This document shows, piece after piece, positions 5,628-14,528 of a stretch of DNA of 33,472 nucleotides. The number at the start of each line of letters is the position of its first letter. The stretch's first letter is position 1. The notes under the pieces are model-generated. The model was not told the DNA's origin. It saw only the letters and a list, made by a program, of their open reading frames with translations, and searched no databases. The stretch covers positions 1-33,472 of the forward strand of contig JAENJC010000001.1 of assembly GCA_016844545.1 (NCBI GenBank), in the 5' to 3' direction. Origin of the DNA: Deltaproteobacteria bacterium. Its GTDB lineage: Bacteria; Desulfobacterota; JAENJC01. The translations under genes and the position numbers were made by a program.

Positions 5628-6185
5628 TTAATGTCCTGTCTTTTTAGCCTGCTTCTGGGCCTTTGCCATTAGTGTCCTCCTGGCAGCGGATACAAGGGCT
5701 CCAGGTATCCCCTTGGCCTTGGCAACGTCGGCAAGCTCTTTATCGCTAAGCTTTTGCATTAACTGCATACTTATTCCAACCGGAGTCCTGGGATTATTCA
5801 CAAGGGCCACGAGTATTTCATGACTCCTCATCCATGTCTTGTTCATTGATATAAGCCGTAAGACCTCATCACTGACATTCCTTGATTTTGCGTAGGTAAG
5901 CGCTTCGGCATCATTGAGCTTTGGGCTCTTCATGACCGCTGAGCAAACAAGCTTATTGGGGTCCTTGACAAGGATGCTCCTCGCCTCTTTGTTCCCTTTG
6001 AGCGCAAGCTGTACCTTCTGAGATATTCTCATGGTAAGGATCTGCTGGTAAATGCTTTTGTGTTTCTCCTCCGGGGCCTTTTCTTCTTCCCCTTCCTCCA
6101 CAAGCTCCTTGGGGAAGGTGACCTCTTCACCCTCTATCTTTATTTCTGCTGGTTCTTCAGTCATTACCTTCTCTTCATCCATCAT
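5628..6185 (-). CDS. Hypothetical protein with acidic N-terminus and LRV/HEAT-like ~24-aa helical repeats
   Basis: The ORF extends to 6203 with a TTG start. AAGGAG lies just upstream of the ATGATG at 6185-6180, so the start is probably there. The stop abuts the mglA ATG. Repeats resemble ..NP(K/R)TP.. leucine-rich-repeat-variant units. Family assignment is tentative. Confidence 0.6.
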   Translation of the reverse strand: MMDEEKVMTEEPAEIKIEGEEVTFPKELVEEGEEEKAPEEKHKSIYQQILTMRISQKVQLALKGNKEARSILVKDPNKLVCSAVMKSPKLNDAEALTYAKSRNVSDEVLRLISMNKTWMRSHEILVALVNNPRTPVGISMQLMQKLSDKELADVAKAKGIPGALVSAARRTLMAKAQKQAKKTGH

Positions 6186-6211
6186 CGGCTCCTTAGTTTG
6201 CAAGCAACTAC

Positions 6212-6291
6212 TGTCATGCCCGAAAGCTTTTGTCGGGCATCCATATCCTCTTTAAACCCTGGATTCCCGCTTAAGTACTGCGGGAATGACA
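6212..6291. repeat. Pair of REP-like hairpins in inverted orientation (BIME-like)
   Basis: Hairpin 1 is 6216-6240: ATGCCCGA, 9-nt loop, TCGGGCAT. Hairpin 2 is 6263-6287: ATTCCCGC, 9-nt loop, GCGGGAAT. Flanks are TGTCAT.CCCG and its complement CGGGAATGACA. Confidence 0.75.
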
Positions 6292-6303
6292 ATCTTATTT
6301 TTA

Positions 6304-7044
6304 TTATTTGATCATCTCCGGTTTAAACCCCAGCTTTTCCAGACGTCCGGACAAGGCCTTTGCATCCTCCTCACTCTCTGACCCGGCAATCAACTGATAG
6401 ACCTTAACTCTGATTTCTCTCTTTTCAACCACCGGCGTATAACCGAGCTTTTCAAGGTCTGCCTTGTTAGCATTAGATATCGTCTCATTCAGGTTCGAAA
6501 CGGCGTAGACCTTGTAAACATCCTTCTTCCGTACCACAAAAGGATCATAGCCGTTCTCTTTCAGCCCGGCAACGATACTATTGGCCTCATCCTTATCTTT
6601 CACCTCTTTGGCAAGAATCCTGTTCATCATGAGTTTCTTCTTCATCTCTTTTACTTCATGAGGGATATCTTTCAGCTTCCCCCTGGCTGTCTCAACCTCA
6701 TACCTGGCGGCGTATGTCCCGATAATTACAGCAAGCCCTTCTTTAGCCCCGGCTTCAGGCTTTACCTCAGCCTTGGTCTCAACCATGGGTTTAGCCTTCA
6801 CCTCTTCCACAGCTGTAACAGGGGCCTCTTTTATCGGGATTCTCACCGGAGCCGGCGGAACAGCCGGTTCCTCTTCCTTCAGCAGAAAGAAGTTCGCAGC
6901 AAGCGCCACAATAATCAGCAGGAGCCCTATGAGCAGAAGTTTTTTATTGCTCTTCTTTGGCGCCTTTGACGTCTCCTCAAAACCCTCAAACTCATCCCCA
7001 GTTGACTTCCCTTCCTCTTCGTCAAATAATCCTTTCTGGTCCAT
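6304..7044 (-). CDS. Membrane-anchored SPOR-domain protein
   Basis: 246 aa with one TM segment (LLLIGLLLIIVALAANFFLL). The C-terminal units VYKVYAVSNL..ADLEKLGY and VYQLIAGSESEEDAKALSGRLEKLGFKPEMI look like SPOR repeats. Confidence 0.7.
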   Translation of the reverse strand: MDQKGLFDEEEGKSTGDEFEGFEETSKAPKKSNKKLLLIGLLLIIVALAANFFLLKEEEPAVPPAPVRIPIKEAPVTAVEEVKAKPMVETKAEVKPEAGAKEGLAVIIGTYAARYEVETARGKLKDIPHEVKEMKKKLMMNRILAKEVKDKDEANSIVAGLKENGYDPFVVRKKDVYKVYAVSNLNETISNANKADLEKLGYTPVVEKREIRVKVYQLIAGSESEEDAKALSGRLEKLGFKPEMIK

Positions 7045-7200
7045 CTCATCCTCCTTAGATATTTTAAGGTTACAAGCTTTAGACTAGTTCAAGTAATCTA
7101 ATATCACACTTTTTCCTCATCATTCAAGCTTTTAATAGATGGTCACATCTTTGGCAAAATTACCTTCTTCCAAAAAAGGCTTTGGGTTATAATAGCAGCC

Positions 7201-8388
7201 ATGTTAGATATCGCCAAGCTGTTTTCTGTCCTTGCCCTTATTTCATACCTTTTAAGAAAAAAGTTCCGCATCGGGAACGTCCTTCTTGCTGCATCCGCAT
7301 TACTTGCCCTGCTGTACTTTATGTCACCCCATAAGATTGCTATAGCGATTGGGGCCGCTGCCACGAACCAGGTCACCATAAAGCTAACCCTTTCATTGAC
7401 CTTAATAAGGGTCATTGAGCTTTTGCTTCGCGAAAATAACGTCTTGAGCGAAATGATGCAGGCATCCAAGTCCCTCTTAAGGAACCGGAAACTCATAATA
7501 ATCTCCATGCCCCTCCTCATAGGGATGTTGCCCTCTCTTGGAGGCGCTTACTTTTCTGCCCCAATGGTGGAAGAGTCCACAAAGGGGTTGAAGATATCCA
7601 AAGAAGAAAAGGGGTTTATCAACTTCTGGTTCAGGCATCCCTGGGAGTTTGCGCTTCCCCTGTATCCAGGTATACTCCTTGCCTCAGCCATCTCCGGCAT
7701 AGAGTTAAGGTCCTTAATCCTTGCTAATCTCATCTATGCCGTTACAATGTTGGTAACCGGATTCATATTCAGCATGAAAGGCACAAGTGGGACGATAGAT
7801 ACAGCAAGGGTTTCCAGAGAAGGCCTGCTTAGCTTCCTGCCTATTACATCAATAATCCTGCTCGTGATTCTTTTCAATGTGGAGCTGCAGATGGCCCTTT
7901 TATTGCTCTCAGTCGTCCTCTTCCTGTATTACAGATATTCGGTTCCCAGAATTTTCAGTGCAATAAGGCATGGATTGTCACTTGACGTGGTATTGCTGAT
8001 CCTGGGTGTGATGCTTTTCAAGGAATTGATGGAAAAGACAGGGGCAGTGAACAATATAGGTGAGCTTCTGATATCCTGGGGGATCCCTCTTATACCGCTG
8101 CTGGTCATACTACCTTTTATCAGCGGCCTTCTTACGGGTGTGACAGTGGGGTTTGTAAGCAGCACCTTCCCTCTGCTGATGCACCTTATGCCCGGCTTCC
8201 CGATAGTGGCAGTATCATTAGCCTTTGCGTCAGGCTTTATAGGCGTCCTCCTGTCTCCGGTCCATGTATGCCTTGTACTTACGAGGGAATATTTCAGCGC
8301 AGATATGTGGGGGATTTACAGAAAGATGTTGCCCGCATGCGCCATTCTATTTGTTGTTGCTGTAATAGAATACGTTATCTTGAGATGA
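7201..8388 (+). CDS. Polytopic membrane protein, probable permease (DUF401-like; family tentative)
   Basis: 395 aa, hydrophobic throughout with about 10 or more predicted TM segments. No SD. TATAAT lies 7 nt upstream of the ATG. Confidence 0.55.
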   Translation: MLDIAKLFSVLALISYLLRKKFRIGNVLLAASALLALLYFMSPHKIAIAIGAAATNQVTIKLTLSLTLIRVIELLLRENNVLSEMMQASKSLLRNRKLIIISMPLLIGMLPSLGGAYFSAPMVEESTKGLKISKEEKGFINFWFRHPWEFALPLYPGILLASAISGIELRSLILANLIYAVTMLVTGFIFSMKGTSGTIDTARVSREGLLSFLPITSIILLVILFNVELQMALLLLSVVLFLYYRYSVPRIFSAIRHGLSLDVVLLILGVMLFKELMEKTGAVNNIGELLISWGIPLIPLLVILPFISGLLTGVTVGFVSSTFPLLMHLMPGFPIVAVSLAFASGFIGVLLSPVHVCLVLTREYFSADMWGIYRKMLPACAILFVVAVIEYVILR

Positions 8389-9651: not shown

Positions 9652-10143
9652 CTATTGACCGTCGACTCTCAATATCCTTATATCAGCCTTTTTCTTTGCC
9701 TCACTCAGCCATTTATCATACCTGCCTGCTGACGTTCCCTCCTTTTGCTCCCTGACCTTGTCAACAACAATTGAAGAGGCGAACTTCCTGGACAGATCCT
9801 TAAGATCCAGTTCGTAAGTCTCTAAAAAAAGGGCAAACTCGCTCCTGGATAGGAATGTTTCCTCGAAGCGTACTATCTCCTTAGTCACATCATCCATGGT
9901 TATGGTCAGACCGAGCCTGCCCGCCTCAGCAGAGACTATCTCTCTTTCTATCAAATAGCTAAGGGCTTCAGCCTTATCAGCACTAACCCCAAACTGCCTT
10001 CTTATGGCCATCTCCTCTTTCAGGTCGCTCATGGTTATCACCTTGTCATTGACAACGGCAACAATCCTTTCCACAACCTCTGCATCGACTGCCACAGAAA
10101 GAGATGCGGCTATAATAAGTATCAGTAGTGTATGTCTGAACAT
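9652..10143 (-). CDS. SurA N-terminal-domain periplasmic chaperone-like protein (no parvulin domain)
   Basis: Signal peptide MFRHTLLILIIAASLSVAVDA, then RIVAVVNDKVIT..L and a SurA-like tail (WLSEAKKKADIRIL). Start chosen at 10143; the ORF extends to 10167. Confidence 0.6.
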   Translation of the reverse strand: MFRHTLLILIIAASLSVAVDAEVVERIVAVVNDKVITMSDLKEEMAIRRQFGVSADKAEALSYLIEREIVSAEAGRLGLTITMDDVTKEIVRFEETFLSRSEFALFLETYELDLKDLSRKFASSIVVDKVREQKEGTSAGRYDKWLSEAKKKADIRILRVDGQ

Positions 10144-10251: not shown

Positions 10252-11544
10252 ATGTTCAATAAGAGAATTCCGTTCCTTCTGACAGCCGCGTCGATCCTCT
10301 TCCTCTTTAGTATACTTAATGCTGAGGAAAGACAGGTACGCGTAATAAAGGTACAGGCAGCCATAAATCCAACCATAGCAGAATTCGTCACAAGTTCCAT
10401 AAAAAAAGCGGCAGTGTCGGGAGATGAGGCGATTATAATTGAACTCGATACCCCCGGAGGGCTCGATACGTCCATGAGAGAGATAGTAAAAGAGCTTCTC
10501 TCCCCTCCCCTTCCTGTAATAGTCTACGTCCATCCAGGAGGCGGAAGGGCGGCGTCTGCCGGGGCACTGATAACTATGGCAGCCAATATTGCGGCCATGA
10601 CCCACGGAACTAACATAGGGGCAGCACACCCTGTGAATATGGGCGGTGGTGAGGTCAGCAAGGAGATGAACGAGAAGATCACAAACGATGCAGTGGCATA
10701 TATAAAAGGCCTGGCGGAAAAGCGCGGAAGAAATGCAGAGTGGGCTGTAAAGGCCGTAAAGGAGAGCGCTTCTATCCCTGCTGAAGAGGCCCTGAAGATC
10801 AATGTAATCGATATCATTGCCGGAGACCTTGATGACCTCCTGAATCAGACAGACGGCAGGAAGGTTCTAACCGCCAAGGGAGAAACAATTCTTCATACAA
10901 AAGGTATAAAGATAGTAAGGGAAGAGATGGGATTTGGTCAAAGGATTCTTAATGTTATTAGCGACCCGAATGTTGCATACATCCTGATGATGCTTGGTCT
11001 TTTAGGCCTTTACTTTGAACTCTCAAATCCAGGTGCGATATTCCCCGGAGTCATGGGCGCCATATGCCTCATCCTTGCCTTCTATGCCTTCCAGACCATC
11101 CCTGTGAACTATGCCGGGGTCCTCCTGATTCTACTGTCTATCATACTATTCGTGGCTGAGGCAATGGTCACGAGTTATGGGATCCTTGCTATAGGAGGGA
11201 TAGTTGCCATGTTCCTCGGTTCCATCATGCTGTTTGATTCCCCTCTCCCATACCTTAGAGCATCTCTTCTGGTAATAATCCCTACCGTCCTTACTACTGC
11301 CGGGCTCTTCATACTGGCAATAACTTATGCCATAAGGGCCCAGTTCAGGAAGACGGAAACCGGGGCAGAGGGAATGATAGGTCAGGTTGGCGAGGCCAGA
11401 AGCAGGATATCCCCAACAGGAAAGGTATTTGTGGCTGGGGAATACTGGGATGCGGAGAGCGAAGAGGTCATAGAGGAAGGGGAGAAGGTCAGGGTCATAG
11501 CCCTGAAAGGCTTGAAACTTAAGGTTTCCAAGGTGGCAAAATGA
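10252..11544 (+). CDS. nfeD: NfeD-family membrane-bound ClpP-class serine protease (long form)
   Basis: 430 aa: signal/TM, ClpP-like domain (ELDTPGG..AASAGALI), several TM segments, and a C-terminal OB-like domain (GKVFVAGEYWDAES..KVRV). Confidence 0.88.
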   Translation: MFNKRIPFLLTAASILFLFSILNAEERQVRVIKVQAAINPTIAEFVTSSIKKAAVSGDEAIIIELDTPGGLDTSMREIVKELLSPPLPVIVYVHPGGGRAASAGALITMAANIAAMTHGTNIGAAHPVNMGGGEVSKEMNEKITNDAVAYIKGLAEKRGRNAEWAVKAVKESASIPAEEALKINVIDIIAGDLDDLLNQTDGRKVLTAKGETILHTKGIKIVREEMGFGQRILNVISDPNVAYILMMLGLLGLYFELSNPGAIFPGVMGAICLILAFYAFQTIPVNYAGVLLILLSIILFVAEAMVTSYGILAIGGIVAMFLGSIMLFDSPLPYLRASLLVIIPTVLTTAGLFILAITYAIRAQFRKTETGAEGMIGQVGEARSRISPTGKVFVAGEYWDAESEEVIEEGEKVRVIALKGLKLKVSKVAK

Positions 11545-12131
11545 AGCCGCTCTGGTCAATAGCTCTATTATTATTGCTTTGGAGCGGTATTTCTAATGCT
11601 GACACGTATAAGTATATAGACGATAAGGGAACTCCCACCTTCACTGACGATATCAAGAGTATCCCCGAAAGATACAGGAAAAAAGCGGTACTTTTAAAAA
11701 ACGATGATGAAAAGGTCACAATATTAACGCCTCCTCTGGCAGACAAAATAGATGAGTCACTCCTCCCACAAAAGGAAGCGGCGAGAGACACGGCAGAGAT
11801 ATCTTCTGCTAATAATCAGACCCTTGAGCCTCAGAATCAGGGTTTTCCTTACCTGAATGTTGCAATAATCTCATCAATCTTCTTAGGCACACTTATCTCA
11901 GCGGTCTTTGTAGACAACAGGATATTTAAAAAGATTCTGAATATTGTCAGCCTCGCATCCATGCTCACCCTCCTCGTCTACATCTCGACATTCTTTGTCT
12001 CCAGGCATATGCATACACTAAAAAAGGCTTCAACCGAGATGGCAGATACATTGAAGAAGAAAGAGGCTCAAAAGGAGAAGGAGATTCAGAAGGTGCTTGG
12101 AGACGAAAAGCCGTTAGAAGGGAACCGATAA
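11541..12131 (+). CDS. DUF4124-like secreted/membrane protein
   Basis: Signal peptide followed by YKYIDDKGTPTFTDDIKSIP (DUF4124-type motif), TM segments and a lysine-rich tail. ATGA overlap with the nfeD stop. Confidence 0.65.
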   Translation: MKPLWSIALLLLLWSGISNADTYKYIDDKGTPTFTDDIKSIPERYRKKAVLLKNDDEKVTILTPPLADKIDESLLPQKEAARDTAEISSANNQTLEPQNQGFPYLNVAIISSIFLGTLISAVFVDNRIFKKILNIVSLASMLTLLVYISTFFVSRHMHTLKKASTEMADTLKKKEAQKEKEIQKVLGDEKPLEGNR

Positions 12132-12270
12132 ATTTGCAAAACAAACATCCTTGACTGTCTGTACTGTTTTATCATATGAGTGCGTAATAAATTATAATAC
12201 ACTTTGAATATAAGTTTGAAGATATACATAAAAAGCTGCATAAAGTCGTAAAAGGATAAAATTATACCTA

Positions 12271-12288
12271 TTCTACGTATACGTAGAA
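12271..12288. promoter_or_regulatory. 18-bp perfect palindrome TTCTACGTA|TACGTAGAA upstream of the islet ORF (candidate operator)
   Basis: Read directly, 33 nt upstream of the ATG at 12321. The function is inferred only. Confidence 0.4.
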
Positions 12289-12320
12289 AAAACACTGTTA
12301 TGTGTTTAGGAAACGGCAAA

Positions 12321-12851
12321 ATGACGACTGATACAAATAAGAATTGGCAAGCTATCATCGGCTTAGTTTCTGAAATGAAACGATGTGATGAATGCGGCTT
12401 TACAACTGCCTCAGTCGCAATGGCTTTCATCTGTATCGATACTCTCGCGAGTCTTGGCAGGCCTCAAGATAAACAAAAAGTTACTCGCCCTGATTTCAAA
12501 GAATGGGTTGATACACACCTTAAAGCTCATCCAGATCAGCCATATCAATATAGAGGTAAAGACGTTTATGCTGCTCGCTGCGCTTTTCTCCACACGTATG
12601 GGTCAGAAGCTGAATTACATAAAGAAGATCCTGACACTATAAAATTTGCCTATCACAATGGCGGTAAGCATAAATATAACCCAACCATAGATCAGGGGCT
12701 TGTGCTCATTGGCACTAAGTCTTTCATAAATGATGTGGTATGCGCAGTTGAGTCGTTCCTTAAAACATGTCAGAGCGAAGCGCCATTGAGGGATCGTGTA
12801 GAAGAACGCCTTCCTGGTGTTCTACAAACAATGCCATTACCTTCGCAATGA
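12321..12851 (+). CDS. Hypothetical protein with an Rx4H motif (possible HEPN-like fold)
   Basis: The ORF is open from 12300. AGGAA lies 7 nt upstream of the ATG at 12321. RCAFLH is encoded at 12576-12593. The region is AT-rich and I recognise no homologue. Confidence 0.6.
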   Translation: MTTDTNKNWQAIIGLVSEMKRCDECGFTTASVAMAFICIDTLASLGRPQDKQKVTRPDFKEWVDTHLKAHPDQPYQYRGKDVYAARCAFLHTYGSEAELHKEDPDTIKFAYHNGGKHKYNPTIDQGLVLIGTKSFINDVVCAVESFLKTCQSEAPLRDRVEERLPGVLQTMPLPSQ

Positions 12852-12858
12852 TTTATAC

Positions 12859-12957
12859 ACATAACAAGCGGCTCCATACAGATGCTTACTGTCATGTCCC
12901 TTGCATATAACCCGCAAGGCCCATGCCAGACGCACAAGGTGAGCCTTAACGTTAGAA
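12859..12957 (+). mobile_element. Candidate integron attC-type site (imperfect 99-nt hairpin with ACATAAC ... GTTAGAA ends)
   Basis: Pairings seen: TAAC/GTTA, AAG/CTT and GCTC/GAGC, then 13 of 16 pairs between 12889-12904 and 12914-12929 around a 9-nt loop (12905-12913). CG (12869-70) and AAC (12948-50) are unpaired. GTTATGT at 12297-12303 is the exact complement of ACATAAC. Confidence 0.35.
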
Positions 12958-13028
12958 GAAATACAAAACTCAGAGATATTATATAGTGTATTCAAAAGAG
13001 GATGCCGTGTATTCAATGAAAAAGTTTA

Positions 13029-13060
13029 GTAGGTCGGGTAGAGCAACGCGAAACCCGACA
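13029..13060. repeat. REP (left): GTAGGTCGGGTAGAGCAACGCGAAACCCGACA
   Basis: Internal hairpin GTCGGGT..ACCCGAC with a 5' GTAG. It is the inverted copy of 13665-13696, with 31 of 32 positions matching. Confidence 0.8.
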
Positions 13061-13112
13061 GAATAGACACAATAGACACAATTCCTATGATTGATGATCC
13101 TGTTGAGGAATC

Positions 13113-13655
13113 ATGCAATACCGGAGATCGCTGGCAAAAGGGGCAACGTTCTTTTTTACGGTCGTAACGCACAACCGACGCACTATTCTCTGTCATGAAT
13201 CTAACGTCATACTGATGCGTGAAGCCTTTCAAAATGTCATCATACGGCATCCCTTTACCATTGACGCCTTTGTGTTGCTGCCTGAACATCTGCATTGCAT
13301 TTGGACCTTGCCGGAAAATGATAACGATTTCTCGATGCGCTGGCGGCAGATCAAAAGTTATTTCAGCAGACGATGCGGGGATGAATTCAAAGGCCGGCAA
13401 ACGACTGCCCACCTAAAGAGAGGTGAGCAAGCTGTCTGGCAACAGCGTTTCTGGGAACACCAGATCAGAGATGACCATGATTTTATCAGGCATGTCGATT
13501 ATATCCATTATAATCCCGTAAAGCATGGTTTGGTGAAGTCACCCATTGCATGGCCGCATTCCACATTTCAACGTTATGTGAAGCAGGGTATTTATCACAG
13601 CGATTGGGGAACAGATGAAAAGATTGTATTCGAGCCGAAGGTGGGAAGTGAGTAA
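13113..13655 (+). CDS. REP-associated tyrosine transposase (RAYT; IS200/IS605-like Y1 HUH transposase)
   Basis: 180 aa. HUH motif in LLPEHLHCIW and the Tyr motif YIHYNPVKHGLV. Flanked by inverted REPs. Confidence 0.88.
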   Translation: MQYRRSLAKGATFFFTVVTHNRRTILCHESNVILMREAFQNVIIRHPFTIDAFVLLPEHLHCIWTLPENDNDFSMRWRQIKSYFSRRCGDEFKGRQTTAHLKRGEQAVWQQRFWEHQIRDDHDFIRHVDYIHYNPVKHGLVKSPIAWPHSTFQRYVKQGIYHSDWGTDEKIVFEPKVGSE

Positions 13656-13664
13656 GACAAATGA

Positions 13665-13696
13665 TGTCGGGTTTCGCTTTGCTCTACCCGACCTAC
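13665..13696. repeat. REP (right), inverted copy of 13029-13060
   Basis: The reverse complement of TGTCGGGTTTCGCTTTGCTCTACCCGACCTAC matches the left REP except for one base. Confidence 0.8.
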
Positions 13697-13766: not shown

Positions 13767-14528
13767 ATGGAAATGCTTACAATACCATTTTTAGTAGTAA
13801 TAGGTGTGGTCATATTCATACTGGCCAACTCCGTCAGGGTGCTGAACGAGTATGAGAGAGGGGTAATATTCAGACTGGGTCGGGCCATAGGGGCCAAGGG
13901 GCCGGGGCTTATAATACTCATACCTGTCATAGACAAGATGGTGAAGGTGGATTTGAGGACAGTTACAATGGACGTGCCTCCCCAGGAGGTCATTACAAGG
14001 GACAACGTATCCGTAAAGGTAAATGCAGTGGTCTACTTCAGGGCGCTGGACCCTATGAAGGCTGTCTTGAGCGTTGAGAACTACCTATACGCCACATCCC
14101 AGCTTGCCCAGACGACCCTTCGAAGCGTATGCGGGCAGGGAGAGATGGACGACCTGCTTTCGGAAAGAGAAAAGATAAACAAACAGCTTCAGGAGATTCT
14201 GGACAGGCAGACTGAACCGTGGGGGGTGAAGATAAGCGCGGTGGAGATAAAAGGGATAGACCTTCCTGATGAGATGAAGAGGGCCATGGCGAAGCAGGCG
14301 GAGGCTGAGAGGGAGAAGAGGGCAAAGATAATCCACTCTGCAGGGGAGTACGAGGCAGCTGCTAATCTGGCAAAGGCCGCTGATATGATATCCATGAACC
14401 CTGTAACACTTCAGCTAAGGTATCTCCAGACCTTAACCGAGATAGCAGTAGAAAAGAACTCAACGATACTCTTCCCATTACCGATGGATCTGCTAAAACC
14501 GTTTTTAAACCTTGGGGAAAAGAAGTGA
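13767..14528 (+). CDS. SPFH-domain stomatin/prohibitin homologue
   Basis: 253 aa. N-terminal TM, then [29 protein letters not shown], followed by a coiled AEAEREKRA region. AAGGAGG lies 6 nt upstream of the ATG. Confidence 0.9.

Follow-up and report, generated by a model that had tools for sequence, protein, structure and literature searches.

A likely integron gene cassette at the head of a small, decayed array in a variable island of a Deltaproteobacteria bacterium

We analysed 33,472 nucleotides of the genome of a Deltaproteobacteria bacterium (assembly GCA_016844545.1, contig JAENJC010000001.1), referred to below as the window. Positions 12298 to 12951 likely constitute one integron gene cassette, whose gene is promoterless in style. 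This cassette heads a small array that has decayed and for which the window contains no integrase. The array occupies an island of variable content, flanked by a DUF4124-like gene on one side and by the stomatin gene of an nfeD-stomatin operon on the other, and its order is a G|TT junction at 12297/98, the first cassette, a second G|TT at 12951/52, a toxin-antitoxin (TA) stub, a REP/RAYT insertion and the stomatin gene (Table 1). Elements of this kind (SALIN/CALIN) are known, and the present one is real but fairly ordinary. It provides a documented case of integrase-less cassettes in a core operon of an uncultured groundwater lineage, and the current understanding of integrons is unchanged by it.

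By analogy with established integron biology, the cassette would first have existed as a circle. The bottom strand of its attC would have formed a hairpin comprising R and L boxes, a spacer and an extrahelical G and T, and an integron integrase whose gene lies elsewhere or has been lost would have recombined the cassette at G|TT into the junction. Because such recombination splits R', TTATGT would come to head the cassette and to complement the cassette's own R'', ACATAAC. Expression would then be driven by promoters resident in the AT-rich platform to the left. The part of the stem that separates the two extrahelical bases would later have acquired mismatches, and recombination is perhaps no longer efficient.

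Table 1. Features of the cassette locus, in window coordinates
Feature	Position	Strand	Evidence or remark
AT-rich left platform (...TTCTACGKATAYGTAGAAAAAACAYTG)	12132..12296	+	Between DUF4124-like gene and cassette junction
Left cassette boundary GTTATGT	12297..12303	+	Probable crossover between G12297 and T12298
Cassette ORF, 176 aa	12321..12851	+	211 homologues, 42 invariant columns
attC, 99 nt	12859..12957	+	Covariance models, arm alignment, bottom-strand fold
attC R'' ACATAAC	12859-12865	+	
attC 5' spacer	12866-12869/70	+	
attC L'' stem GGCTC[C]A	12870-12876	+	Bulged C at 12874/75
attC second extrahelical base	A12882	+	
attC variable terminal hairpin	12889-12929	+	
attC L' stem TGAGCC	12940-12945	+	
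attC 3' spacer	up to 12950	+	
attC R' GTTAGAA	12951-12957	+	Crossover G12951|T12952
Second-cassette remnant: leader, ribosome-binding site, first 7 codons (GTG 13007 onward)	12952..13028	+	L077 alignment
REP-RAYT-REP unit	13029..13696	+	Defines right edge; outside integron-type element
RAYT gene (Y1 tyrosine transposase)	13113-13655		NCBIfam REP_Tyr_transpos, 193 bits; Pfam Y1_Tnp

Cassette boundaries, homologues and protein product

An earlier note on this DNA, which worked from the raw sequence, described a gene cassette of the integron type in which an attC follows the ORF and crossover points at G|TT lie on both sides, and our analysis agrees that the cassette was correctly recognised. When the sequence was read, the positions that the note had given for GTTATGT, ACATAAC and GTTAGAA were all reproduced, GTTATGT was the exact reverse complement of ACATAAC, and ACATAAC began 7 nt downstream of the stop codon (TGA, 12849-12851). 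TTATGT at the head of the cassette is the half of the R' site that belongs to the cassette itself. The observation is real and above chance. The ATG at 12300, inside GTTATGT, is not the true start codon; the homologues of about 176 residues (n ~200) align from the ATG at 12321.

The homologues of the predicted protein are 65-99% identical to it, about 176 aa long and spread across phyla. Those with 65-82% identity occur in Marinobacter, Algiphilus, Shewanella, Thiobacillus, Geobacteraceae, Nitrospirales, Desulfobacter and others, and Vibrio xiamenensis also has one, a 58% identical gene in its array (locus L016). Many lie inside same-strand attC arrays (Vibrio, with two attC repeat families, and loci L014, L017, L009, L040 and L048), and the same gene is a cassette of bona fide attC arrays at L016, L014, L017, L009, L040, L026 and L002. 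A search for intI beside the arrays at L009 and L017 returned only a doubtful 222-aa fragment, in L009. Most homologous loci share one layout, with GTTATGY approximately 19-28 nt upstream of the start and RCATAAC 5-10 nt downstream of the stop, and the DNA to the left of G|TT is unrelated between them. The earlier note had cautioned that a 7-mer match is weak on its own. In 11 of the 18 loci with both motifs the two are exact complements (GTTATGT/ACATAAC in nine, GTTATGC/GCATAAC and GTTATGA/TCATAAC), so that the boundary 7-mers covary in three states (T/A, C/G and A/T). On these grounds we regard the gene family as cassette-borne. The Vibrio superintegrons, as sedentary chromosomal integrons, offer the closest view of the same logic: the L016 homologue is a regular cassette between two VCR-like attCs, with GTTATGA/TCATAAC as its boundaries. 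The window differs from them in lacking a long array, a homogeneous family of attCs throughout the array and an integrase within reach.

The cassette protein has no family in Pfam, NCBIfam or PADLOC and no sequence match in the PDB. Alignment of its homologues revealed an invariant R86-x4-H91 motif. The AF2 model (pLDDT 75) is all-helical, and the top Foldseek matches were HEPN proteins (2hsb, 9bj6, 1wol and 3o10), none of them significant (E of at least 0.6, TM ~0.35-0.48). We took HEPN proteins to be defined by a four-helix up-down bundle and a catalytic Rx4-6H motif, together with a significant match to a profile or structure. The predicted all-helical fold, with R86...H91 in a helix, resembles that of the HEPN RNases (AbiV, toxin-antitoxin and abortive-infection toxins), whereas the protein has no significant Foldseek, Pfam or PDB match. 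The resemblance is a lead only, and membership is putative. The gene family has been very widely transferred and is strongly conserved, at about 70% identity across phyla with an invariant Rx4H, and it would be worth including in functional screens, where it might prove to be a toxin or a defence-type RNase.

The attC site and its fold

We defined an attC as an imperfect palindrome of 57-141 nt with RYYYAAC and GTTRRRY ends that lies 3' of an ORF in the same orientation. The 99-nt imperfect palindrome that the earlier note had described from ACATAAC to GTTAGAA is present, with its outer pairings TAAC/GTTA, AAG/CTT and GCTC/GAGC and an inner hairpin in which 12889-12904 pairs with 12914-12929 at 13 of 16 positions around a 9-nt loop (12905-12913). 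R'' and R' each carry one mismatch to the consensus, and their AAC and GTT are intact. The R box is 4 bp long, the spacers measure 4-5 and 5-6 nt, and the L stem comprises 6 bp with a bulged C (G on the bottom strand). A second bulged A (T on the bottom strand) lies 6 nt beyond the L stem, in a register that matches approximately 35 real attCs in an arm-versus-arm alignment. The 3' end of the site, GAGC-CTTAAC-GTTA, resembles that of the closest homologues, L026 and L028 (GAGC/CAGC-TTGGTC-GTTA). The attCs of L026 and L006 are better preserved than that of the window. Folding of the bottom strand had been proposed as a check for canonical extrahelical bases; both bases are in register, but the 6-nt helix between them is paired at only 2 of 6 positions, which leaves an internal loop of 14 x 11 nt. 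Because this helix is largely unpaired, the attC looks partly decayed, and that it should still be recombination-proficient seems to us, judging from its structure, somewhat doubtful.

Two covariance models, R1 and R2, were built from the sites of other genomes with the window excluded. MAFFT alignments of the attCs had structurally wrong arms and were discarded; therefore three well-aligned sites and a structure written by hand served to seed the model, and the remaining sites were realigned by Infernal. In the resulting structure 91.7% of cells were paired and 10 of 16 pairs were changed on both sides, which is strong covariation. Both models placed the site at 12859-12957 on the plus strand (R1, 19.8 bits, E = 0.0023; R2, 21.6 bits, E = 0.0034), with E values whose calibration is rough and scores that include a few bits gained for free, since the training set contains the attCs of homologous cassettes sharing ACATAAC. 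Neither model found a second attC in the window, where the next best match had E > 3. The lack of a second hit bears out the earlier note, which had seen no further attC there and likewise no intI. On the arrays, the same model detected many attCs outside the training set at 21-45 bits, all of them on the gene strand. The score of the window's attC lies at the low end of real sites (range, 21-69 bits).

In unconstrained folds only the inner hairpin was robust (z = -2.5 and -2.2) and the R and L boxes were unformed. When the attC form was forced, the bottom strand reached -15.8 kcal/mol, at most 0.6 kcal/mol above the free minimum, and the top strand -11.8 kcal/mol, so that the bottom strand is about 4 kcal/mol more stable in this form. 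Only 4 of 300 interior shuffles folded as well as the bottom strand did. In a scan for RYYYAAC...GTTRRRY pairs with constrained folding, the site came first in the window when energy was taken per nucleotide (-0.16 kcal/mol/nt) but was not clearly above background; the scan cannot assign a strand, because the motif pair is self-complementary. Taken alone, the predicted folding would amount to modest evidence.

These folds could instead be read as those of a terminator, a REP, a regulatory stem-loop or some other generic structured element behind an ordinary accessory gene with coincidental 7-mers. The free-energy folds yield just the inner hairpin, the constrained energy is unexceptional among the motif pairs of the window, and a search of the whole window against Rfam gave no match, a result that says little either way. 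However, the terminator scan returned nothing on the plus strand at the hairpin, and no T-run follows the stem. The hairpin, whose recurrence elsewhere in the genome would have spoken against a cassette according to the earlier note, has no further copy in the window, and the genome's REP is a different sequence from the attC hairpin. The covariation of the boundary 7-mers across homologues and the covariance models, which matched only this site in the window, also argue against a generic element; the comparative data refute such an origin, which we consider extremely unlikely.

The second cassette stub, the REP/RAYT unit and the sister genomes

The earlier note had described a lone cassette. 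This description did not hold, since R' is followed directly by what is left of a second cassette, namely its leader and first 7 codons. Window positions 12945-13029 align with positions 7901-7986 of a sister genome, L077 (local alignment score of 47 against a shuffled null of 8.9 +/- 1.3, z = 30), where the aligned stretch lies upstream of an intact antitoxin/ParE pair. The remnant is thus the start of an Unstab_antitox/ParE TA cassette, truncated in the window by a REP element. Because the DNA from the G|TT of R' is the start of a TA cassette that is intact in L077, at least two cassette units were once adjacent. The inverted REP arms that flank the RAYT gene are 32 nt long (13029-13060 and 13665-13696) and 97% complementary.

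The island differs between the sister genomes. Besides the window's genome, the locus is present in GCA_015660955.1, in GCA_030646755.1 and on a 1.06-Mb contig of ERZ1286166. A canonical attC (26 bits) is present in L077. In the loci of L072, L075 and L082 none was detected, and the island is therefore not demonstrably cassette-built throughout. The available sequence of L083 ends at the gene. No match was obtained when the variable genes of the sister genomes were compared by tblastn with all fetched arrays. No integrase-type tyrosine recombinase was found among 26 ORFs of the window, all long ones included, and no intI among the genes called within 5-6 kb of the island in the sister loci. 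The earlier note had considered the lineage one not classically associated with integrons. This was a weak point: NCBI assigns the sister MAGs to the Deltaproteobacteria, and integrons as well as integrase-less attC clusters are well documented in Deltaproteobacteria.

REP/RAYT units or fragments of them lie at the edge of the variable genes in all the sister genomes, which raises the question of whether the neighbouring Y1 transposase (RAYT/REP), or another non-integron system, assembled the island, with the attC-like features as passive relics. The left REP junctions are uniform, all reading AGTT(T)|(A/G)GTAGGTCGGG with different DNA to their left, and most of the sister-genome genes have no detectable attC. 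Assembly by such a system is nevertheless very unlikely in our view. The left junctions of the island all fall at G|TT, the window's cassette and one cassette of L077 have correctly oriented attCs, and the REP arm interrupts a cassette and does not form its boundary. No RAYT is known to mobilise gene cassettes.

In the nomenclature of IntegronFinder, a SALIN is a single attC and a CALIN a cluster of attCs, both without an integron-integrase (PMC9024848; bioRxiv 10.1101/2022.09.11.507474). A complete integron (intI, attI and Pc) was found neither in the window nor in the sister loci. Nor does the window hold the at least two attCs that make a CALIN, with one attC detectable and the stub devoid of any, while it does hold, at the 33-kb scale, one attC and a CDS with no other att site or intI. 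The earlier description as SALIN-like thus stands operationally, because only one attC is detectable and no intI is present in the window, and falls short historically, because the second cassette stub that follows the attC makes the locus a former CALIN. With SALINs and small CALINs it shares an ORF with an attC, no nearby intI or classical attI, a chromosomal position next to housekeeping genes and transposable elements at the array edge. It differs from them in that its junction carries other genes in the sister genomes and its attC is partly decayed.

The left junction

The left platform has a GC content of 0.35, compared with 0.45-0.5 nearby. It contains a promoter-like site (12169-12198) with 10 of 12 matching positions, although such matches are not enriched over shuffles, and a perfect palindrome of 18 nt, TTCTACGTATACGTAGAA, at 12271-12288. 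This palindrome is conserved, and the junction, ...TTCTACGTATACGTAGAAAAAACACTG|TTA, lies 9 nt to its right and downstream of the promoter-like sequence. The last ~60 nt of the platform show homology to L072 and L082 that extends exactly as far as the G of G|TT (z = 10.9), and the sister genomes diverge from the window exactly at the left boundary of the cassette. The left junction ...GAAAAAACAYTG|TTA is common to L072, L075, L077 and L082, with other genes following it, contrary to the one-off secondary site that the earlier note had envisaged.

A single insertion of this kind would make the cassette a true orphan, inserted once at a secondary site (attC x attG) into resident DNA. Several observations are compatible with it: the window has one detectable attC and no intI, the left junction, ...CACTG|TT, is AT-rich, is not an attC and agrees with the GWT consensus of attG, and the same cassette family stands alone after similar AT-rich junctions, beside ordinary genes, in L006, L028 and L045. 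Against it, the leader and start of the TA cassette begin exactly at the G|TT of R' and are intact in L077, and the sister genomes carry other genes after the same junction, one of them with another attC. The empty site that the earlier note had predicted, ...CACTG|TTAGAAG..., was not found; the only relative without the island, L079, resembles a larger deletion. Its DUF4124 C-terminus is shortened in comparison with that of the outgroup L080, so L079 probably represents a deletion and not the ancestral state. We therefore judge an orphan insertion unlikely and retain the reading of a first cassette in a decayed array.

Integrase-mediated insertion of cassettes at genomic 5'-GWT-3' sites, including hot spots, has been described as attG recombination, with hot-spot motifs reported from E. 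coli with IntI1-3 (bioRxiv 10.1101/2022.09.11.507474). The left junction of the window is like an attG in being a non-attC, double-strand-type site cut at G|TT, with the cassette downstream of a promoter-like sequence, and unlike one in that several inserts have apparently used it across the sister genomes, which is more attI-like. This might be taken to mean that the junction is a recurrent cassette-entry site with no adjacent integrase gene, either attI-like or a hot spot of the attG type, on which an integrase would act in trans, a tentative notion that we hold to be possible and rather improbable. It would be in keeping with first cassettes having been swapped among sister genomes (the window, L082, L072 and L077) and with the similarity of the left flank in L006. 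If correct, the entry site would be natural evidence for the proposed evolutionary route from attG to attI, and the locus offers a natural test of the reuse of genomic G|TT hot spots in cassette capture. For the left flank of L006 (Nitrospirales), a free local alignment with the window was not significant (z = 0.9), whereas an alignment anchored at the junction matched at 13 of 19 positions and was an outlier (z = 3.5), which we leave as a lead.

Cassette boundaries and distribution of the cassette gene

The variable DNA between the DUF4124-like gene and the stomatin gene carries a cassette-family gene with cassette boundaries, an attC-like site, and the stub of a second cassette, with no integrase in reach. 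Reading of the window sequence bore out every coordinate of the earlier note, which had proposed an integron-type gene cassette at this position. An ATG at 12300 was rejected as the ORF start; the start is the ATG at 12321, and relatives (n = 211, ~176 aa) align from that Met.

Features of the cassette locus and of a related island
Feature	Position	Strand	Remark
nfeD	10252-11544		Left of cassette
DUF4124-like gene	11541-12131		Left of cassette, after nfeD
Left boundary GTTATGT	12297-12303	+	Window sequence
Stop codon TGA of cassette ORF	12849-51	+	Window sequence
ACATAAC (R'')	12859-65	+	7 nt past stop codon
GTTAGAA (R')	12951-57	+	Window sequence
REP-RAYT-REP unit	13029-13696		RAYT gene bracketed by 32-nt inverted REP arms
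REP-associated tyrosine transposase (RAYT)	13113-13655		Between cassette and stomatin gene; NCBIfam equivalog, 193 bits
Stomatin/SPFH gene	13767-14528		Right of cassette and RAYT
IS630-type (DDE_3) transposase, sister locus L081	3627-4661		Directly after DUF4124 gene

In loci carrying homologues, GTTATGY was found mostly 19-28 nt 5' of the start and RCATAAC 5-10 nt 3' of the stop. Both motifs were present in 18 loci and were exact reverse complements in 11, with covariation at the seventh position (GTTATGT/ACATAAC in nine, GTTATGC/GCATAAC in gammaproteobacterial locus L009, and GTTATGA/TCATAAC in Vibrio). The sequence left of G|TT varies by locus and often is the end of a preceding attC, and 3' of R'' lies an imperfect palindrome particular to each locus and terminating in GTTRRRY. 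Circular cassettes are opened at the G|TT of their attC (10.1101/2022.09.11.507474), and this layout and covariation are the signature expected of that process. The integron-cassette reading is supported by the boundaries, the attC-like site, and the gene family.

Relatives of the cassette protein with 65-82% identity occur in Marinobacter, Algiphilus, Shewanella, Vibrio, Thiobacillus, Geobacteraceae, Nitrospirales, Desulfobacter, Bacteroidota, and Spirochaetia, a spread over unrelated bacteria that is typical of horizontally moved genes. In the fetched loci, the neighbours of the homologue are short ORFs on the same strand. Homologues also lie within attC arrays, namely, a Vibrio xiamenensis superintegron (L016; two attC repeat families, spacing of 350-1300 nt), a Geobacteraceae array of at least seven sites (L014), and arrays in Thiobacillus (L017), the gammaproteobacterial MAG (L009), and three metagenome contigs (L040, L048, and L026).

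At two further loci, L028 (1829-2651) and L045 (47-523), the same family is present as a single unit with ordinary genes alongside (a gene pair, by eye with a TIR-like first product, and a response-regulator gene), preceded by the AT-rich non-attC junctions ..ATAAAATACAATG|TTATGT and ..ATGATAATATTG|TTATGT. These loci suggest that the family has inserted repeatedly in the manner of a SALIN (a single attC without integrase). In a Nitrospirales MAG (L006), the same cassette (76% amino acid identity) lies at an unrelated locus, 3' of an SDR gene. Its left flank (9957-9976, identical in L027), ...TTCTAGAAGACGAATAAAAATTACTG|TTATGT, shares 13 of 19 positions with window 12278-12297 and, among 125 GTTATGN sites, stands out as an outlier (z = 3.5).

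The attC-like site downstream of the ORF

When either strand was folded freely, the inner hairpin (12889-12904 with 12914-12929; 13 of 16 positions paired, 9-nt loop) alone was formed confidently (z of about -2.3 to -2.5), so the outer pairings required other evidence. Two covariance models were built. R1 used three attCs from other genomes, aligned correctly by MAFFT, with a hand-written structure (R box, spacer, L stem, two single-base bulges, and one distal pair), and R2 used the Infernal alignment of 28 sites recovered by R1 in fetched loci. In the R2 alignment, 91.7% of cells were paired in the structure and 10 of 16 pairs had both-side changes; the covariation score was 0.49, versus 0.14 for shuffles and ≤0.07 for slid partners, in an alignment itself fitted to the model. 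R2 recovered many untrained attCs at 21-45 bits, all on the cassette-gene strand, with a single reverse-strand echo in 371 kb.

With filters off, both models matched exactly 12859-12957 on the + strand (R1, 19.8 bits, E = 0.0023; R2, 21.6 bits, E = 0.0034). This score falls in the low range for real sites and is owed partly to ACATAAC, which is common to the homologous cassettes of the training set. No further attC was found in the window, all other R1 and R2 matches being <10 bits. One of these, at 2897-2950 (GCATAACA...GTTATGC, inside a folC-like gene), had weak matches on both strands (9 bits, E of about 3) and was judged to be due to chance.

Comparison of the 5' arm with the reverse complement of the 3' arm in ~35 real attC sites gave a constant register: R'', 3-5 nt, a 4-6 bp stem, one bulge, ~6 bp, a bulged A (the "GGAC/CGAC" motif), and a further stem. 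The window site reads ACATAAC-AAGC(G)-GGCTC[C]A-TACAG-[A]-TGC... in its 5' arm and ...GCA-CAAGG-TGAGCC-TTAAC-GTTAGAA in its 3' arm. The site thus has the R box TAAC/GTTA, unequal spacers, an L stem with bulged C (bottom-strand G), and the second bulge at A12882 (bottom-strand T). Pairing between the two bulges is limited to 2 of 6 positions, so that the distal hairpin is preceded by a large internal loop. At its 3' end (GAGC-CTTAAC-GTTA), the site is similar to the attCs of the closest homologues (GAGC-TTGGTC-GTTA in L028 and CAGC-TTGGTC-GTTA in L026). Forced into the attC form, the bottom strand reached -15.8 kcal/mol (free minimum, -16.4) and the top strand only -11.8, the asymmetry expected of attC sites. 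We read 12859-12957 as a genuine attC that is partly decayed; the decay would have been subsequent to insertion.

A variable island with a second cassette stub

Among the genes of the window, which is core genome, are trpD/trpC, folC, folE2, SecDF, tgt, queA, recJ, recN-like, and NAD kinase genes. No integrase-type recombinase was found among the 26 window ORFs scanned, which included all long ones. Sister loci were found through close homologues of the DUF4124-like neighbour in other MAGs. L005 (GCA_015660955.1) is the same locus, with a 99% identical cassette protein. The same two genes flank 245-, 166-, and 163-aa genes and an antitoxin/ParE pair in loci L072, L073, and L075, whose neighbour proteins are 86-87% identical; L077 (79% identity) has 125-, 84-, and 97-aa genes and a different ParE pair, and L082 has one 114-aa gene. 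Contents differ among relatives, so the island is variable, and the ORF with its hairpin is one of its states rather than ancestral, syntenic sequence, the alternative raised in the earlier note. The island is absent from L079 (GCA_016208525.1; 6480-6650), where 43 nt separate the DUF4124 and stomatin genes. Because the DUF4124 C terminus of L079 is shorter than that of the outgroup (L080) as well as those of L072, L077, and the window, the absence probably reflects a secondary deletion spanning the island and not an ancestral empty site. The spot after the DUF4124 gene attracts several kinds of mobile DNA, the IS630-type element of L081 included.

The left flank is kept to the same point in the window (...GTAGAAAAAACACTG, with TTATGTgtttagg after G|TT), L082 (...GTAGAAAAAACACTG, then TTATGTccataga), L072 (...GTAGAAAAAACATTG, then TTAACCttgaaa), and L077 (...GAGAAAAACTTG, then TTAAATatat). 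L077 has a canonical attC (7000-7053, 26 bits), and none was detectable in L072, L075, L081, or L082. We consider it rather unlikely that the conserved junction serves repeatedly as a site of cassette entry at a distance from the integrase.

AT-rich intergenic DNA (GC, 0.35) precedes the ORF. Here a perfect 18-nt palindrome, TTCTACGTATACGTAGAA (12271-12288), ends 9 nt short of the G|TT junction and is conserved in L072 and L082 with 1-2 changes; it may be a protein-binding site or belong to an attI-like site. L077 contains repeated units (5800-6360 and 6940-7000), CCAACCAGKTT..CTSCACCAGAYTWCACTGGTGAG.., then GGCAGAATCGGCCC, which resemble attC 5' halves, having an L-type hairpin without the GTT R' site. 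L072 (6709-7732) has two adjacent paralogous genes of ~165 aa, starting ...GEYLVACELARRG.. and ..GDCGELTICNWLSRSG..., whose products by eye resemble PD-(D/E)XK or Holliday-junction-resolvase-like nucleases.

Window 12945-13029 (85 nt) aligns with L077 7901-7986 (score of 47 versus a null of 8.9 ± 1.3), where the same stretch comprises an attC end, a leader with a ribosome-binding site, and the first Unstab_antitox codons, followed by a ParE gene. In the window, this homology ends after codon 7, exactly at the start of the left REP arm (13029). G|TTAGAA thus marks the border between two cassettes, the second of which the REP/RAYT insertion destroyed. In sister genomes, the RAYT is reduced to the left REP and 100-170 nt of the gene, with differing cut points; the left REP junctions all read AGTT(T)|(A/G)GTAGGTCGGG, despite differing DNA to their left.

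Classification, origin, and the cassette protein

The proposal of a lone orphan cassette at a secondary site, in a lineage not classically associated with integrons, stands only in part: no integrase is in reach, and the cassette is not alone, being followed by the stub of a second one. Operationally the locus is a SALIN and historically a small CALIN (attC cluster without integrase; PMC9024848; 10.1101/2022.09.11.507474). Neither category is new or rare, RefSeq containing 3400 SALINs and 2961 CALINs (10.1101/2022.09.11.507474). The authors of IntegronFinder caution that single attC sites may be false positives, a doubt that the comparative evidence removes at this locus. An integron integrase, either supplied in trans or lost in the meantime, would have carried out the insertion at G|TT, the target being either an attG-type genomic site (GWT consensus; 10.1101/2022.09.11.507474) or an attI-like platform. 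Expression may be driven from resident promoter-like sequence, matches of a kind not statistically enriched.

The cassette protein matched no family in Pfam, NCBIfam, or PADLOC. Its AF2 model (pLDDT, 75; pTM, 0.74) is all-helical with two short strands, and an invariant R86-C-A-F-L-H91 (Rx4H) motif lies within a predicted helix. Its closest PDB structures, all weak matches, are HEPN proteins (2hsb, AbiV 9bj6/9bj7, 1wol, and 3o10; E ≥ 0.6), and as a lead, the cassette may encode a HEPN-like RNase or toxin.
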